Source: Escherichia coli (lineage in GTDB: Bacteria; Pseudomonadota; Gammaproteobacteria; Enterobacterales; Enterobacteriaceae). Taken from it: a stretch of 64,000 nucleotides of DNA. Made by a program: the position numbers and the translations under genes. Below are positions 31 through 53,763 of the stretch, one piece after another. The notes below the pieces were generated by a model. That model ran no database searches, was not told the DNA's origin, and saw only the letters and a list, made by a program, of their open reading frames with translations. The DNA lies in the NCBI RefSeq assembly GCF_046105845.1, contig NZ_CP151004.1; one strand, written 5' to 3'. Position 1 is the first letter of the stretch. Each line of letters begins with the position of its first letter.

Positions 31-930
31 ATGTTTTCTGGGCTGTTAATCATTCTGGTTCCCCTGATTGTGGGTTACCTCATTCCGCTTCGCCAAAAAG
101 CTGCATTAAGAGTTATTAATCAGCTCTTAAGCTGGATGGTTTACCTTATTCTCTTTTTTATGGGTATCAGTCTGGCGTTTCTCGATAACCTCGCCAGTAA
201 CCTGTTGGCAATTCTGCATTATTCCGCCGTCAGCATTACCATTATTTTACTCTGCAATATTATTGCGTTGTTGTGGCTGGAGCGCGGTCTGCCGTGGCGC
301 AATCACCACCAGCAAGAAAAACTCCCGTCGCGTATTGCGATGGCGCTGGAGTCGCTAAAACTGTGCGGCGTAGTAGTGATTGGTTTTGCCATTGGCCTGA
401 GTGGACTGGCTTTCTTACAACATGCGACCGAAGCCAGTGAATACACCTTAATTCTGCTACTTTTCCTCGTCGGTATTCAGTTGCGCAATAATGGCATGAC
501 CTTAAAGCAGATTGTCCTTAATCGCCGGGGAATGATTGTCGCCGTGGTGGTGGTTGTCAGTTCATTAATTGGTGGTTTAATTAACGCCTTTATTCTTGAT
601 CTCCCCATCAATACCGCGCTGGCAATGGCCTCTGGTTTCGGCTGGTATTCTCTTTCCGGTATTTTATTGACCGAATCTTTTGGTCCGGTAATCGGGAGCG
701 CGGCGTTTTTTAATGATCTGGCCCGTGAGCTGATTGCAATTATGTTGATCCCTGGGCTGATTCGCCGCAGCCGCTCTACCGCACTGGGCTTATGCGGTGC
801 CACGTCGATGGATTTCACCCTGCCCGTTCTTCAACGTACTGGCGGGCTGGATATGGTCCCGGCGGCGATTGTTCACGGTTTTATTCTTAGTCTGTTAGTG
901 CCGATCCTCATCGCCTTTTTCTCTGCATAA
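31..930 (+). CDS. lysO: Lysine exporter LysO (YbjE), inner-membrane protein
   Basis: 299-aa hydrophobic multi-TM ORF; recognised sequence and position immediately upstream of hcp. Confidence 0.8.
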   Translation: MFSGLLIILVPLIVGYLIPLRQKAALRVINQLLSWMVYLILFFMGISLAFLDNLASNLLAILHYSAVSITIILLCNIIALLWLERGLPWRNHHQQEKLPSRIAMALESLKLCGVVVIGFAIGLSGLAFLQHATEASEYTLILLLFLVGIQLRNNGMTLKQIVLNRRGMIVAVVVVVSSLIGGLINAFILDLPINTALAMASGFGWYSLSGILLTESFGPVIGSAAFFNDLARELIAIMLIPGLIRRSRSTALGLCGATSMDFTLPVLQRTGGLDMVPAAIVHGFILSLLVPILIAFFSA

Positions 931-963
931 TACCTCTCTGGCGGTAGATCCCTGCCGCCAAAA

Positions 964-977
964 TTGCGCTAAATCAA
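964..977 (+). promoter_or_regulatory. FNR-type site TTGCGCTAAATCAA in hcp promoter
   Basis: Matches TTGAT-N4-ATCAA consensus at 4/5 + 5/5 positions, about 95 bp upstream of hcp start; hcp is a known FNR-activated anaerobic gene. Confidence 0.6.
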
Positions 978-1036
978 TCTCCCTTAAAGTTGCATAAAAA
1001 ATCCCTTTTATCCCCGCGTTAAGCGTCTTAACCTTA

Positions 1037-1059
1037 AACATGTATATTAAATATAACTT
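1037..1059 (+). promoter_or_regulatory. Candidate NsrR operator (AT-rich imperfect inverted repeat) overlapping hcp core promoter
   Basis: aacatgtatattaaatataactt lies between the FNR site and the hcp start; hcp-hcr is a known NsrR target; exact boundaries are inference. Confidence 0.45.
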
Positions 1060-1073
1060 TAAAAGGTGTGATC

Positions 1074-2726
1074 ATGTTTTGTGTGCAATGTGAACAAACT
1101 ATCCGTACTCCGGCAGGAAACGGCTGCTCATACGCGCAGGGGATGTGTGGTAAAACGGCGGAAACCTCTGACCTTCAGGATTTACTCATCGCGGCGCTGC
1201 AAGGGCTTTCGGCCTGGGCGGTAAAAGCGCGTGAATACGGCATCATCAACCACGATGTAGACAGCTTTGCGCCACGCGCATTTTTCTCAACCCTGACCAA
1301 CGTTAACTTCGATTCTCCGCGTATTGTCGGCTACGCTCGTGAAGCGATTGCCCTGCGCGAGGCGCTGAAAGCACAATGCCTGGCTGTAGATGCCAACGCG
1401 CACGTCGATAACCCGATGGCTGACCTGCAACTGGTGAGCGACGATCTCGGCGAGCTGCAACGTCAGGCAGCAGAATTTACCCCTAACAAAGATAAAGCGG
1501 CGATTGGCGAAAACATTCTCGGCCTGCGTCTGCTGTGCCTGTATGGCCTGAAAGGTGCGGCGGCCTATATGGAACACGCACACGTTCTCGGTCAATACGA
1601 CAATGATATTTACGCCCAGTACCATAAAATCATGGCGTGGCTGGGGACCTGGCCTGCCGATATGAACGCGCTTCTTGAGTGTTCAATGGAAATCGGCCAG
1701 ATGAACTTCAAAGTGATGAGCATTCTGGATGCAGGCGAAACCAGTAAATACGGTCACCCGACGCCAACCCAGGTCAACGTCAAAGCGACGGCGGGTAAAT
1801 GCATTCTGATTTCCGGTCACGATCTCAAAGATCTCTACAACCTGCTGGAACAGACCGAAGGCACGGGCGTTAATGTCTACACCCACGGTGAAATGCTGCC
1901 TGCGCATGGCTACCCGGAGCTGCGTAAATTCAAGCATCTGGTCGGTAACTACGGCAGCGGCTGGCAGAATCAGCAAGTGGAGTTCGCTCGTTTCCCTGGC
2001 CCCATCGTGATGACCTCGAACTGCATCATCGACCCAACCGTAGGCGCTTATGACGATCGTATCTGGACCCGCAGCATCGTTGGCTGGCCGGGTGTGCGTC
2101 ATCTGGATGGCGAAGATTTCTCTGCGGTCATCGCCCAGGCGCAACAAATGGCGGGCTTCCCGTACAGCGAAATTCCGCACCTGATCACCGTGGGCTTTGG
2201 TCGTCAAACGCTGCTTGGCGCAGCGGATACGCTGATTGATCTGGTAAGCCGTGAAAAACTGCGTCATATCTTCCTGCTTGGCGGCTGTGACGGCGCACGC
2301 GGCGAGCGTCACTACTTCACCGATTTCGCCACCAACGTGCCGGATGACTGTCTGATCCTGACTCTCGCCTGTGGTAAATATCGCTTTAACAAACTCGAGT
2401 TTGGCGATATCGAAGGTCTGCCGCGTCTGGTAGATGCTGGTCAGTGTAACGATGCTTACTCAGCGATTATTCTGGCGGTAACGCTGGCAGAAAAACTGGG
2501 CTGCGGTGTCAACGATCTGCCGCTGTCGCTGGTGCTCTCGTGGTTTGAACAGAAAGCGATTGTCATTCTGCTGACACTGCTTTCTCTGGGTGTGAAAAAT
2601 ATCGTAACCGGCCCGACTGCACCTGGTTTCCTGACACCAGACCTGCTGGCGGTGCTGAACGAGAAATTCGGCCTGCGTTCTATCACCACTGTTGAAGAAG
2701 ACATGAAGCAACTGTTGAGCGCGTAA
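1074..2726 (+). CDS. hcp: Hybrid-cluster protein (hydroxylamine reductase / NO reductase)
   Basis: N-terminal Cys cluster CVQCEQT...C..C; recognised Hcp sequence; start taken at M3 of the ORF-track ORF. Confidence 0.93.
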
Positions 2727-2737
2727 GGAGTTTGTCG

Positions 2738-3706
2738 ATGACGATGCCAACGAATCAATGCCCGTGGCGGATGCAGGTTCATCACATTACGCAAGAAACG
2801 CCGGATGTATGGACGATTTCCCTGATTTGCCACGATTACTACCCATATCGCGCCGGGCAATATGCACTGGTCAGCGTGCGTAACTCAGCGGAAACGCTGC
2901 GTGCTTACACCATTTCCTCCACGCCAGGCGTGAGTGAATACATCACCCTGACTGTGCGGCGGATTGATGACGGAGTCGGCTCCCAGTGGCTGACGCGCGA
3001 TGTAAAACGCGGTGATTATCTCTGGCTTTCGGACGCGATGGGGGAATTTACCTGCGACGATAAAGCAGAAGATAAATTCCTGTTGCTGGCGGCAGGCTGC
3101 GGCGTCACGCCGATTATGTCGATGCGTCGCTGGCTGGCGAAGAACCGTCCGCAGGCCGATGTGCAGGTGATCTACAACGTGCGTTCGCCGCAGGATGTTA
3201 TTTTCGCCGATGAGTGGCGTAACTATCCGGTGACGCTGGTGGCAGAAAATAACGTTACCGAAGGCTTTATCGCTGGTCGTCTCACTCGCGAACTGCTGGC
3301 AGGTGTCCCTGACTTAACTTCACGTACCGTGATGACCTGCGGCCCGGCTCCGTATATGGATTGGGTAGAGCAGGAAGTGAAAGCGCTCGGCGTGACGCGT
3401 TTCTTTAAAGAGAAATTCTTCACCCCAGTAGCGGAAGCGGCGACCAGCGGTCTGAAATTCACCAAACTGCAACCGGCACGAGAATTTTACGCCCCGTTTG
3501 GCACCACGCTACTGGAGGCGCTGGAAAGCAATAACGTTCCGGTTGTCGCCGCCTGCCGTGCAGGTGTTTGCGGCTGCTGTAAGACGAAAGTGGTTTCCGG
3601 TGAATATACGGTGAGCAGCACAATGACGCTGACCGACGCCGAAATCGCTGAAGGTTACGTGCTGGCCTGCTCCTGCCATCCGCAGGGAGATTTGGTTCTC
3701 GCATAA
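2738..3706 (+). CDS. hcr: NADH oxidoreductase for Hcp (FAD/NAD-binding plus C-terminal 2Fe-2S ferredoxin domain)
   Basis: Immediately downstream of hcp; C-terminal CRAGVCGCC...C ferredoxin-type motif. Confidence 0.9.
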   Translation: MTMPTNQCPWRMQVHHITQETPDVWTISLICHDYYPYRAGQYALVSVRNSAETLRAYTISSTPGVSEYITLTVRRIDDGVGSQWLTRDVKRGDYLWLSDAMGEFTCDDKAEDKFLLLAAGCGVTPIMSMRRWLAKNRPQADVQVIYNVRSPQDVIFADEWRNYPVTLVAENNVTEGFIAGRLTRELLAGVPDLTSRTVMTCGPAPYMDWVEQEVKALGVTRFFKEKFFTPVAEAATSGLKFTKLQPAREFYAPFGTTLLEALESNNVPVVAACRAGVCGCCKTKVVSGEYTVSSTMTLTDAEIAEGYVLACSCHPQGDLVLA

Positions 3707-3838: not shown

Positions 3839-5557
3839 ATGAAACAAACGGTTGCAGCTTATATCGCCAAAACACTCGAATCGGCAGGCGTGAAACGCAT
3901 CTGGGGAGTCACGGGCGACTCTCTGAACGGTCTTAGCGACAGTCTTAATCGCATGGGCACCATCGAGTGGATGTCCACCCGCCATGAAGAAGTGGCGGCC
4001 TTTGCCGCTGGTGCTGAAGCACAACTTTCAGGAGAACTGGCGGTCTGTGCCGGATCGTGCGGCCCCGGCAACCTGCACTTAATCAACGGCCTGTTCGATT
4101 GCCACCGCAATCACGTTCCGGTACTGGCGATTGCCGCTCATATTCCCTCCAGCGAAATTGGCAGCGGCTATTTCCAGGAAACCCACCCACAAGAGCTATT
4201 CCGCGAATGTAGTCACTATTGCGAGCTGGTTTCCAGCCCAGAGCAGATCCCACAAGTGCTGGCGATTGCCATGCGCAAAGCGGTGCTTAACCGTGGCGTT
4301 TCCGTTGTCGTGTTACCGGGCGACGTGGCGTTAAAACCTGCACCAGAAGGGGCAACCTCGCACTGGTATCATGCGCCACAACCAGTCGTGACGCCGGAAG
4401 AAGAAGAGTTACGCAAACTGGCGCAACTGCTGCGTTATTCCAGCAATATCGCCCTGATGTGTGGCAGCGGCTGCACGGGGGCGCATAAAGAGTTAGTTGA
4501 GTTTGCCGGGAAAATTAAAGCACCTATTGTTCATGCCCTGCGCGGTAAAGAACATGTCGAATACGATAATCCGTATGATGTCGGAATGACGGGATTAATC
4601 GGCTTCTCGTCAGGTTTCCATACCATGATGAATGCCGATACGTTAGTGCTGCTCGGCACGCAATTTCCCTACCGCGCGTTCTACCCGACCGATGCCAAAA
4701 TTATTCAGATTGATATCAACCCAGCCAGCATCGGCGCGCATAGCAAGGTAGATATGGCACTGGTCGGCGATATCAAATCAACCCTGCGGGCATTGCTGCC
4801 ACTGGTGGAAGAAAAAACCGATCGCAAGTTTCTGGATAAAGCGCTGGAAGATTACCGCGACGCCCGCAAAGGGCTGGACGATTTAGCTAAACCGAGCGAG
4901 AAAGCCATTCACCCGCAATATCTGGCGCAGCAAATTAGTCATTTTGCCGCCGATGACGCCATCTTTACCTGTGACGTTGGTACGCCAACGGTGTGGGCGG
5001 CACGTTATCTGAAAATGAACGGCAAGCGTCGTCTGTTAGGTTCGTTTAACCACGGTTCGATGGCTAACGCCATGCCGCAGGCGCTGGGTGCGCAGGCAAC
5101 CGAGCCGGAACGTCAGGTGGTCGCCATGTGCGGCGATGGCGGTTTTAGCATGTTGATGGGCGATTTCCTCTCAGTAGTGCAGATGAAACTGCCGGTGAAA
5201 ATTATCGTCTTTAATAACAGCGTGCTGGGCTTTGTGGCGATGGAGATGAAAGCTGGTGGCTATTTGACTGACGGCACCGAACTACATGACACCAACTTTG
5301 CCCGCATTGCCGAAGCGTGCGGAATTACGGGTATTCGCGTGGAAAAAGCCTCTGAAGTCGATGAAGCCCTGCAACGCGCCTTCTCCATCGACGGTCCGGT
5401 GCTGGTGGATGTGGTGGTCGCCAAAGAAGAATTAGCCATTCCACCGCAGATCAAACTCGAACAGGCCAAAGGTTTCAGCCTGTATATGCTGCGCGCAATC
5501 ATCAGCGGACGCGGCGATGAAGTGATCGAACTGGCGAAAACAAACTGGCTAAGGTAA
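3839..5557 (+). CDS. poxB: Pyruvate oxidase (ubiquinone), thiamine-diphosphate/FAD enzyme
   Basis: 572-aa ORF with TPP-enzyme architecture; recognised PoxB sequence. Confidence 0.93.
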
Positions 5558-29129: not shown

Positions 29130-29172
29130 AACTGAAGTTGCCCTGAAAATGAAATTTTTTTGCACAACCGCA

Positions 29173-53633: not shown

Positions 53634-53763
53634 AACCATCCTCAAAATGTACTTTTTGTCTGAATGTAGACTATCACGGGAAAACTCTCTGAACAGTTGA
53701 CGCACATCAATCTAACTTTCATTCGAAAGTATTTTAATGTTTGAACGAAACAGAGAGGCAACT

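Follow-up and report, generated by a model that had tools for sequence, protein, structure and literature searches.

Does the short stretch of DNA between lysO and hcp in Escherichia coli carry operators for FNR and NsrR, and if so, what kind of promoter do they control? A sequence-only reading of a 64,000-nucleotide window (the whole stretch of DNA analysed here, to which all positions refer) had assigned an FNR site and an AT-rich NsrR-type palindrome to this region, and had called the resulting anaerobic and nitrosative-stress control of hcp-hcr expected biology. We conclude with high confidence that positions 931-1073 are the hcp-hcr regulatory region and join oxygen and nitric-oxide signals. 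The evidence from the present analysis is the identity of the sites with published ones, their matrix scores, their conservation and their fixed spacing; in vivo occupancy and FNR- and NsrR-dependent expression are taken from the literature on the identical K-12 sites and on Salmonella.

The lysO-hcp intergenic region

The intergenic region is 143 bp long (931-1073). It is preceded by the open reading frame of lysO (ybjE; 31-930, + strand, stop codon at 928-930; RefSeq E. coli annotation), which is transcribed in the same direction as hcp. The hcp open reading frame (1074-2726, + strand) encodes the 550-residue hybrid cluster protein, and its ATG at 1074 aligns with the K-12 hcp start. The second gene of the operon, the NADH oxidoreductase gene hcr (2738-3706, + strand), is an open reading frame of the same length as K-12 hcr. 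A Shine-Dalgarno sequence, AAGGTG (1063-1068, + strand), is seen 5 nt upstream of the hcp ATG and is conserved in the alignment. Both the FNR site and the NsrR site fall in the interval from the lysO stop codon to the hcp start.

RefSeq genomes label the flanking genes lysO and hcp, and the intergenic region is found in 5424 of 5426 complete E. coli genomes. Compared with K-12 MG1655, 142 of 143 bases are the same. The sole difference, at 996, falls in a weak second NsrR-like site; the FNR 14-mer, the NsrR 23-mer, the heptamers of a candidate 7-2-7 site and the spacing of all these elements are identical in K-12. The annotation and this single difference bear out the assignment of the region as the hcp promoter. 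A search of Rfam with positions 700-1300 (E ≤ 1) returned no RNA family matches, and a riboswitch or small RNA upstream of hcp was rejected on these grounds. Conservation was assessed in a phylogenetic footprint of 79 orthologous regions from Enterobacteriaceae.

The FNR and NsrR operators

The predicted FNR match, TTGCGCTAAATCAA, is present at exactly 964-977 (centre, 970.5). It agrees with the consensus TTGAT-N4-ATCAA at eight of ten positions: the right half equals ATCAA exactly and the left half is TTGCG, so that TTGCG-CTAA-ATCAA retains the T-T-G and C-A-A core, of which G966 and C975 form part. Sites with up to two mismatches to this consensus occur 50 times in the window, compared with 34.6 expected. 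Because consensus counting is thus uninformative for FNR, we turned to position weight matrices (PWMs) that rest on ChIP-bound sites from the literature. The FNR matrix, derived from 62 ChIP-bound sites with hcp left out, gave TTGCGCTAAATCAA a score of 13.3 bits, rank 3 among about 64,000 positions. Chance matches at this level are expected about 1.2 times per random 64 kb, or about 0.003 times per 143-bp intergenic region. The site also exceeds the PatSer threshold of Myers et al. (2013), whose FNR site for hcp is TTGATTTAGCGCAA, the same 14-mer read as its reverse complement; their Table S6 gives a PatSer score of 13.11 and ln p of -11.6 and marks it as ChIP-seq positive. In Table 1 of the same study, hcp-hcr is a directly FNR-activated operon (Category 1) with its site at -72.5, a position that fits activation. 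In the footprint, each of the 79 orthologous regions contains an FNR match of 12.3 bits or more. We also looked for another factor overlapping the FNR site that would explain the invariant TTGCG and CTAA, and found no supporting motif; the CTAA spacer agrees with the TTAn preference of other FNR sites.

The AT-rich palindrome is likewise present at the predicted position: AACATGTATATTAAATATAACTT, at 1037-1059 (centre, 1048), is the published 11-1-11 NsrR site of hcp. It is an inverted repeat, AACATGTATAT-t-AAATATAACTT, of the AAGATGCATTT-n-AAATGCATCTT type, and is imperfect, with complementarity between the halves at 7 of 11 positions. A matrix derived from 25 other 11-1-11 NsrR sites, hcp being excluded, scored it at 25.8 bits (maximum, 31.9), with 12.5 and 13.1 bits for the half-sites. 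It ranks first in the window, and none of 200 simulated windows reached the score. Thus, neither operator scored below threshold, and with proper matrices applied, the FNR and NsrR sequences at 964-977 and 1037-1059 exceed chance. In the footprint the NsrR site reaches at least 22.1 bits in 79 of 79 orthologues, and the Salmonella operator (L026) is identical.

Table 4 of Mehta et al. (2015) gives the same 23-mer, in reverse complement, as the hcp 11-1-11 site, second genome-wide and ChIP-seq positive, and their NsrR ChIP-seq summit lies 22 bp upstream of the hcp start codon, which corresponds to 1052 in our numbering. Both conserved blocks had been predicted by comparative genomics (Rodionov et al. 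2005). According to the literature, hcp mRNA is up 284-fold in a Salmonella nsrR mutant, hcp is induced 43.7-fold by nitrate in strain CFT073, and the hcp promoter serves as a reporter for NsrR and NO. Together with FNR activation, these reports uphold the anaerobic and nitrosative-stress control that had been attributed to hcp-hcr, and mark it as the already known control of the E. coli locus.

A NarL/NarP-type site and a hairpin downstream of lysO

The sequence-only reading of 930-1074 correctly listed the FNR and NsrR sites, and missed a 7-2-7 site, a hairpin at the 3' end of lysO and the second NsrR-like site. The candidate NarL/NarP 7-2-7 site, TACCTCT-ct-GGCGGTA (931-946; centre, 938.5, or about -104.5), has a left heptamer that matches TACYYMT perfectly and a right heptamer that matches at five of seven positions. 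The GC-rich hairpin, TGGCGGTAG-ATCC-CTGCCGCCA (939-960, + strand), lies just 3' of the lysO stop codon, and its left arm overlaps the right heptamer. It folds with a minimum free energy of -16.5 kcal/mol (z = -4.1; none of 200 shuffled sequences was equally stable). Of 77 distinct orthologous sequences, 71 retain the hairpin; base pairs of its stem are swapped (T-A/T-G/C-G and G-C/A-T/C-G), and the loop varies in sequence and length. The stem-loop is followed by AAAATTGCGC, which contains no U-tract, and a terminator scan gave no hits at 939-960; the hairpin thus does not qualify as a canonical intrinsic (Rho-independent) terminator. The hairpin is probably the lysO 3' end or a terminator-like structure.

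Given this overlap, the conservation of 931-960 could reflect the lysO hairpin only, the NarL/NarP-like heptamers being a by-product of its stem. The stability, conservation and pair swaps of the hairpin would be explained in this way, and in plain counts the 7-2-7 pattern does not exceed chance (six in the window compared with 2.55 expected). We nevertheless consider this explanation unlikely. The 7-2-7 candidate is conserved across the Enterobacteriaceae, and the arrangement TACnnnn-NN-nnnnGTA is kept in place in species that lack the hairpin or have another upstream gene: L062 has TACCCCT-tt-ATGGGTA, and the hairpin-less L064, L065 and L066 retain the pattern as well. In addition, NarL/NarP-dependent induction of hcp by nitrate and nitrite is described in the literature. 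We keep 931-946 as a candidate NarL/NarP site that shares bases with the hairpin.

The core promoter

If the published FNR position of -72.5 is applied to the site centre at 970.5, transcription would start at about 1043 (+ strand), possibly 1-2 nt off. A single TAnnnT hexamer precedes this start closely, TAACCT (1029-1034, + strand), which we take to be the likely -10 element. Across the 79 sequences, T1029, C1033 and T1034 never vary, and A1030 is kept in at least 90%. With this start, the NsrR palindrome is centred at about +6 and spans about -6 to +17. It would thus lie where RNA polymerase sits, as suits a repressor site. The earlier claim that the palindrome overlaps the place of the core promoter needs a small correction on this basis: the operator would cover the start and abut the likely -10 on the downstream side, and would not overlap the -35 or -10 hexamers. 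The positions of both operators are compatible with the mapped transcript start.

A search of 850-1150 with the sigma-70 consensus (-35 TTGACA, -10 TATAAT, 16-18 bp spacing) found no promoter-like site, and TAACCT retains only the T-A...T positions of a sigma-70 -10. This is expected because the promoter is activator-dependent. We take the empty promoter and terminator scans to mean that the promoter is weak and depends on an activator and that the hairpin lacks a U-tract, not that function is absent.

The distance of 8 nt between TAACCT and the inferred start is rather long, and another hexamer, TATATT (1043-1048), which sits within the NsrR operator, looks better. If TATATT were the real -10, transcription would start near 1055, NsrR would repress by covering the -10, as the sequence-only reading had implied, and FNR would be located near -84.5. 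TATATT matches TATAAT at five of six positions and is invariant across orthologues, and TAACCT makes a weak -10 at an unfavourable distance. We consider this arrangement improbable all the same: the published FNR position is -72.5, not -84.5, the centre of the 7-2-7 site falls at -104.5 when the start is at about 1043, and a conserved T1029/A1030/T1034 pattern is present upstream of the NsrR operator. Moreover, TATATT has no conserved, suitably spaced -35, as conservation is lowest in the 1010-1028 spacer. The value of -104.5 for the NarL/NarP site agrees with the position reportedly given by Chismon et al. 2010. We therefore retain TAACCT and a start at about 1043.

The sigma factor deserves separate comment. 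The hexamer GTCTTA at 1025-1030 loosely resembles a sigma-E -10, but it is not conserved, most orthologues having GGCATA. Myers et al. (2013) observed an FNR peak at hcp without a sigma-70 peak in nitrate-free medium, and they cite a report of sigma-E dependence for hcp. These observations could mean that hcp is transcribed mainly by sigma-E rather than sigma-70, in which case the layout of FNR and NsrR sites would need another core promoter. We regard this as very improbable, given that NsrR repression in nitrate-free medium is a simpler cause of the absent sigma-70 peak and that the same study reports FNR-dependent activation. An FNR peak without a sigma-70 peak would fit a repressor that excludes polymerase and does not displace FNR.

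Conservation and spacing

Sequence conservation in the footprint (n = 79) has a mean of 1.95 of 2 bits per column at the FNR site, 1.83 at the NsrR operator and 1.72 at the likely -10; the 1010-1028 spacer has 0.72. In 75 of the 79 regions the centres of the FNR site and the NsrR operator are 77.5 bp apart, and the distance to the ATG is variable. Within E. coli, sequence variants avoid the FNR site, the NsrR operator and the -10. In E. coli O169:H41 2014EL-1345-2, a copy of IS421 lies between the FNR site and the core promoter.

It is barely credible that the sequences at 964-977 and 1037-1059 match the two motifs by chance, or that something other than transcription factor binding, such as promoter or 5' UTR function, has preserved them: loose FNR-like sites are indeed common in the window, the palindrome is AT-rich and self-complementary at only 7 of 11 positions, and 1043-1059 is transcribed and could be under 5' UTR constraint, but identical sequences are bound in published ChIP-seq experiments at both sites, the matrix ranks are 3 (FNR) and 1 (NsrR) in 64 kb, both sites are near-invariant across 79 species next to a spacer that drifts, hcp is derepressed in nsrR mutants, and the region has no Rfam family match.

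The second NsrR-like site

The second NsrR-like site, AAGTTGCATAA-a-AAATCCCTTTT (987-1009; centre, 998, or about -45), is strong in its left half and weak in its right. At 19.9 bits, with 11.6 for the left half, it is the second-best NsrR match in the window. For hcp, Mehta et al. (2015) give a third 11-bp NsrR motif, AAGTTGCATTA. It scores at least 10 bits in 35 of the 79 orthologues and at least 15 bits in 27. E. coli genomes differ within the site, at 996 (A/G/T) and 1004 (C/T). The present sequence has A at 996, K-12 has G, and CFT073 and E2348/69 have T; these alleles give left half-site scores of 11.6, 9.6 and 13.1 bits, respectively. One could speculate about a hitherto unstudied layer of tuning, in which the 996 alleles would vary the shut-off of hcp by NsrR between lineages, and the overlap of the hairpin with the NarL/NarP site would couple lysO read-through to nitrate signalling; we think this doubtful.

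Comparison with other FNR and NsrR promoters

The primary studies of the K-12 hcp-hcr promoter are said to be those of Filenko et al. 2005 and 2007 and Chismon et al. 2010, and the NsrR site at hcp was reportedly described by Partridge et al. 2009. OxyR binding has also been reported at the hcp promoter. The ytfE and hmp promoters, which NO derepresses, carry the same type of 11-1-11 NsrR operator close to their core promoters. Compared with these, the hcp operator is more AT-rich, has GTAT/ATAT cores in place of GCAT, and contains two to three mismatches per half. Unlike ytfE and hmp, hcp pairs its NsrR operator with an upstream FNR activator site. The TTGAT-N4-ATCAA recognition sequence and anaerobic activation are shared with narG, nirB, dmsA and yfiD. 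In 19 of 23 FNR-activated promoters with a known start, the activating site is at -41.5 (class II; Myers et al. 2013), whereas the hcp site at -72.5 is of the class-I type, a difference that is already known. A Bacteroides antisense RNA at an hcp promoter (preprint) was set aside as a parallel, as it concerns an HcpR-regulated hcp in an unrelated lineage.

Discussion

The layout of the region suggests the following model. During anaerobiosis, [4Fe-4S] FNR dimers would bind TTGCGCTAAATCAA and, from their upstream, class-I-type position at -72.5, would aid RNA polymerase at a weak core promoter with its likely -10 at TAACCT and its start at about 1043. As long as NO is absent, [Fe-S] NsrR would occupy the operator from -6 to +17, and its location over the transcript start suggests that it blocks polymerase sterically. 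NO arising from nitrate or nitrite respiration would damage the NsrR cluster and release the repressor. Because FNR activation would thus combine with NO-triggered release of NsrR, full expression of hcp would need both the absence of oxygen and nitrosative stress. The 7-2-7 site (about -104.5) and the weaker NsrR-like site (about -45) would probably act as modulators, and the hairpin at 939-960 probably marks the lysO 3' end.

As a positive control, the locus shows two experimentally supported operators being located to the exact base from raw sequence alone. The FNR site was understated by plain consensus counts and was recovered by proper matrices and phylogenetic footprinting. Both operators and their control of hcp are already known and the discovery value is small: the hcp-hcr promoter is a textbook-level case of combined control by oxygen, through FNR, and by nitric oxide, through NsrR.

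Results

The start of the window holds an open reading frame (31-930), a gap of 143 bp (931-1073) and a 550-codon open reading frame beginning with the ATG at 1074. By BLAST, segment 800-1200 matched 5424 of 5426 complete E. coli genomes, the features under the match being lysO and hcp; the gene order in K-12 MG1655 is lysO-hcp-hcr-poxB. The intergenic region aligns with that of K-12 without gaps and differs at a single base, 996 (A in the window, G in K-12). The BLAST features, the K-12 gene order and the single-base difference therefore identify the region as the E. coli hcp-hcr regulatory region, where the sequence-only reading had placed it; the comparison with K-12 that it had proposed shows this to be the K-12 hcp-hcr promoter itself, rather than a relative of it. 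Identity over the 401 bp of 800-1200 reaches at least 99% in only 31 of the 5424 genomes (95-99% in the remainder), compared with 3360 genomes for the intergenic part; thus, in this strain's lineage, the promoter is better conserved than the flanking coding ends of lysO and hcp.

The FNR consensus site that had been noted, TTGCGCTAAATCAA, is present exactly at 964-977 (centre 970.5) and agrees with TTGAT-N4-ATCAA at 8 of 10 positions. Sites with at most two mismatches number 50 in the window against 34.6 expected by chance, an unconvincing count, and we therefore built position weight matrices (PWMs) from published ChIP-supported sites. In the PWM scan, itself suggested by the sequence-only reading, the FNR matrix (62 sites from Table S6 of Myers et al. 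2013, excluding the hcp site) scored 964-977 at 13.3 bits, the third best among ~64,000 positions; ~1.2 matches of at least this score are expected per random 64 kb, and ~0.003 per 143-bp intergenic region. Myers et al. 2013 give the hcp site as TTGATTTAGCGCAA, which is the window 14-mer read on the opposite strand (PatSer 13.11, ln p -11.6, above the cut-off of -10.75), with an FNR ChIP-seq peak. Their Table 1 lists hcp-hcr as directly activated by FNR from one site at -72.5, and they cite Filenko et al. 2005 as earlier evidence. Given the site centre, the transcript start therefore falls at ~1043, a position that rests on -72.5 as quoted by Myers et al. 2013.

Elsewhere in the window, the best FNR-matrix match is TTGACGCACATCAA (53697-53710, 16.2 bits), whose reverse complement Myers et al. 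2013 list in Table S6 as the ChIP-positive ybiY/fsaA site; others are TTGATATCAATCAT (58536-58549, 13.6 bits) and GTGATTTGTGTCAA (18866-18879, 13.2 bits). The intergenic K-12 aqpZ/ybjD site TTGATTTAGGGCAA (Myers et al. 2013), ~2.3 kb from the hcp site and outside the examined part of the window, differs from TTGATTTAGCGCAA by a single base.

The likely NsrR operator, AACATGTATATTAAATATAACTT, is found exactly at 1037-1059 (NsrR-I) and is indeed an imperfect palindrome, with complementarity at 7 of 11 positions. It scored 25.8 of a possible 31.9 bits with a matrix of 25 11-1-11 sites (Mehta et al. 2015, Table 4, hcp sites excluded), the top match in the window and a score equalled in none of 200 simulated windows. 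The testable sequence features that define an FNR site and an NsrR 11-1-11 operator are all present. NsrR-I is identical to a published ChIP-seq-positive site: among the 11-1-11 NsrR sites of CFT073, Mehta et al. 2015 rank second genome-wide AAGTTATATTTAATATACATGTT, which is the window 23-mer read on the opposite strand. Their ChIP-seq peak has its summit at window 1052, 22 bp upstream of the hcp start codon, and nitrate induced hcp 43.7-fold. In a Salmonella nsrR mutant, hcp mRNA is reported to rise 284-fold, and our alignment shows an identical operator in Salmonella; the hcp promoter also serves as a reporter of NO that depends on NsrR. Rodionov et al. 2005, aligning eight enterobacteria, had predicted both of these conserved blocks, with FNR upstream of the NsrR palindrome. 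The third-best NsrR-matrix match in the window, AAGTTGCCCTGAAAATGAAATTT (29135-29157, 16.8 bits), is a candidate only, in the ybjL/rcdA region.

One Hcp protein scan yielded 80 loci from Escherichia, Citrobacter, Klebsiella, Kluyvera, Salmonella, Enterobacter, Kosakonia, Buttiauxella and others; 78 of these were aligned with the window (79 sequences; 200 bp upstream plus 20 bp coding). Mean information per column (maximum 2 bits) is 1.95 bits in the FNR site, 1.83 in NsrR-I, 1.72 in the hexamer TAACCT (1029-1034) and 1.97 in the first 20 bases of hcp (1074-1093), against 0.72 in the spacer 1010-1028 and 1.18 at the lysO coding end (874-930). In all 79 regions the FNR match reaches at least 12.3 bits and the NsrR match at least 22.1 bits. 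The distance between their centres is 77.5 bp in 75 regions and 76.5 bp in three; in the one remaining region the second NsrR site scores above the first. The operator-to-ATG distance ranges from 24 to 35 bp. The 5' UTR therefore accommodates insertions and deletions, whereas the interval between activator site and core promoter does not, as a helix-face-dependent activator requires. Both sites score highly, are deeply conserved, keep a fixed spacing and are identical to ChIP-positive sites.

The sequence-only inventory of 930-1074 held the FNR site and NsrR-I but missed a NarL/NarP-type site, a hairpin and a second NsrR-like site. The candidate NarL/NarP-type 7-2-7 element, TACCTCT-ct-GGCGGTA (931-946), is centred at 938.5, or ~-104.5. 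By count the pattern is not above chance (6 in the window, 2.55 expected); it is conserved, including in species without the overlapping hairpin (loci L062, L064, L065 and L066 of other genomes; TACCCCT-tt-ATGGGTA in L062). NarL/NarP-dependent induction of hcp is described in the literature. Chismon and colleagues, in 2010, are said to have placed NarL/NarP at -104.5, in agreement with our arithmetic.

The hairpin, TGGCGGTAG-ATCC-CTGCCGCCA (939-960), begins 8 nt after the lysO stop codon and folds with -16.5 kcal/mol (z = -4.1). Of 77 distinct orthologous sequences, 71 retain it, with a loop variable in length and sequence and with pair swaps (T-A/T-G/C-G and G-C/A-T/C-G). No U-tract follows it and a terminator scan gave no hit, which rules out a canonical intrinsic terminator, and an Rfam search returned no RNA family matching the region. 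The most likely role of the hairpin is to mark or protect the 3' end of lysO and to restrict read-through into the hcp promoter.

The NsrR-like site NsrR-II, AAGTTGCATAA-a-AAATCCCTTTT (987-1009, ~-45), precedes NsrR-I by 50 bp. Its 19.9 bits make it the second-best NsrR match in the window. The left half is strong (11.6 bits) and is listed by Mehta et al. 2015 as a third motif for NsrR in the hcp promoter; the right half is weak (8.1 bits). The site scores strongly in Escherichia and in Kluyvera, but only 35 of the 79 species reach 10 bits or more. Differences among the aligned E. coli strains are confined to the hairpin loop (950/951), 996 and 1004, with none in the FNR site, NsrR-I or the candidate -10. 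Both 996 and 1004 fall within NsrR-II: base 996 is A (window), G (K-12, 2014C-3057) or T (E2348/69, E302, CFT073), T being the best fit to the NsrR consensus, and base 1004 is C or T. In E. coli O169:H41 2014EL-1345-2, an IS421 (IS4-like) element is inserted at window-equivalent ~1004-1014 (2560-2620 and 3900-3999 of this strain's locus, L082; target duplication CCTTTTATCCC). This natural promoter disruption puts ~1.35 kb between the FNR site with NsrR-II on one side and the core promoter with NsrR-I on the other.

Discussion

For sequences identical to these, the literature has both proteins bound in vivo, FNR activating and NsrR repressing hcp. Most activating sites at FNR-activated promoters lie at -41.5, whereas the hcp site is at -72.5, from where FNR would act from upstream, in a class-I-type position. 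A promoter scan detected no sigma-70 consensus promoter around the hcp start, and the core promoter is probably weak. The candidate -10 is TAACCT, the sole TAnnnT hexamer just upstream of the inferred start, with conservation at the T, the A and the last T. NsrR-I, at ~-6 to +17, would cover the transcript start within the polymerase footprint and so block initiation, and NO would lift repression by inactivating the NsrR Fe-S cluster. The earlier statement that the palindrome overlaps the core promoter thus holds for the polymerase-occupied region, but not for the -35 and -10 hexamers, unless TATATT (1043-1048) serves as the -10; the palindrome would then lie over the hexamer, a minor alternative to TAACCT.

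Myers et al. 2013 found hcp bound by FNR without a sigma-70 peak in nitrate-free anaerobic medium, for which they refer to a report of sigma-E dependence; our alignment shows no conservation of the sigma-E-like hexamer, and we consider such dependence unlikely on that account. An FNR peak without a sigma-70 peak fits NsrR excluding polymerase while FNR remains bound.

The observation of FNR and NsrR sites at hcp is thus confirmed and its interpretation supported; the finding was already known, and its main part holds nothing new. The minor points that remain are the role of NsrR-II and its lineage variation, the overlap of the hairpin with the NarL/NarP-type site, and the exact -10.
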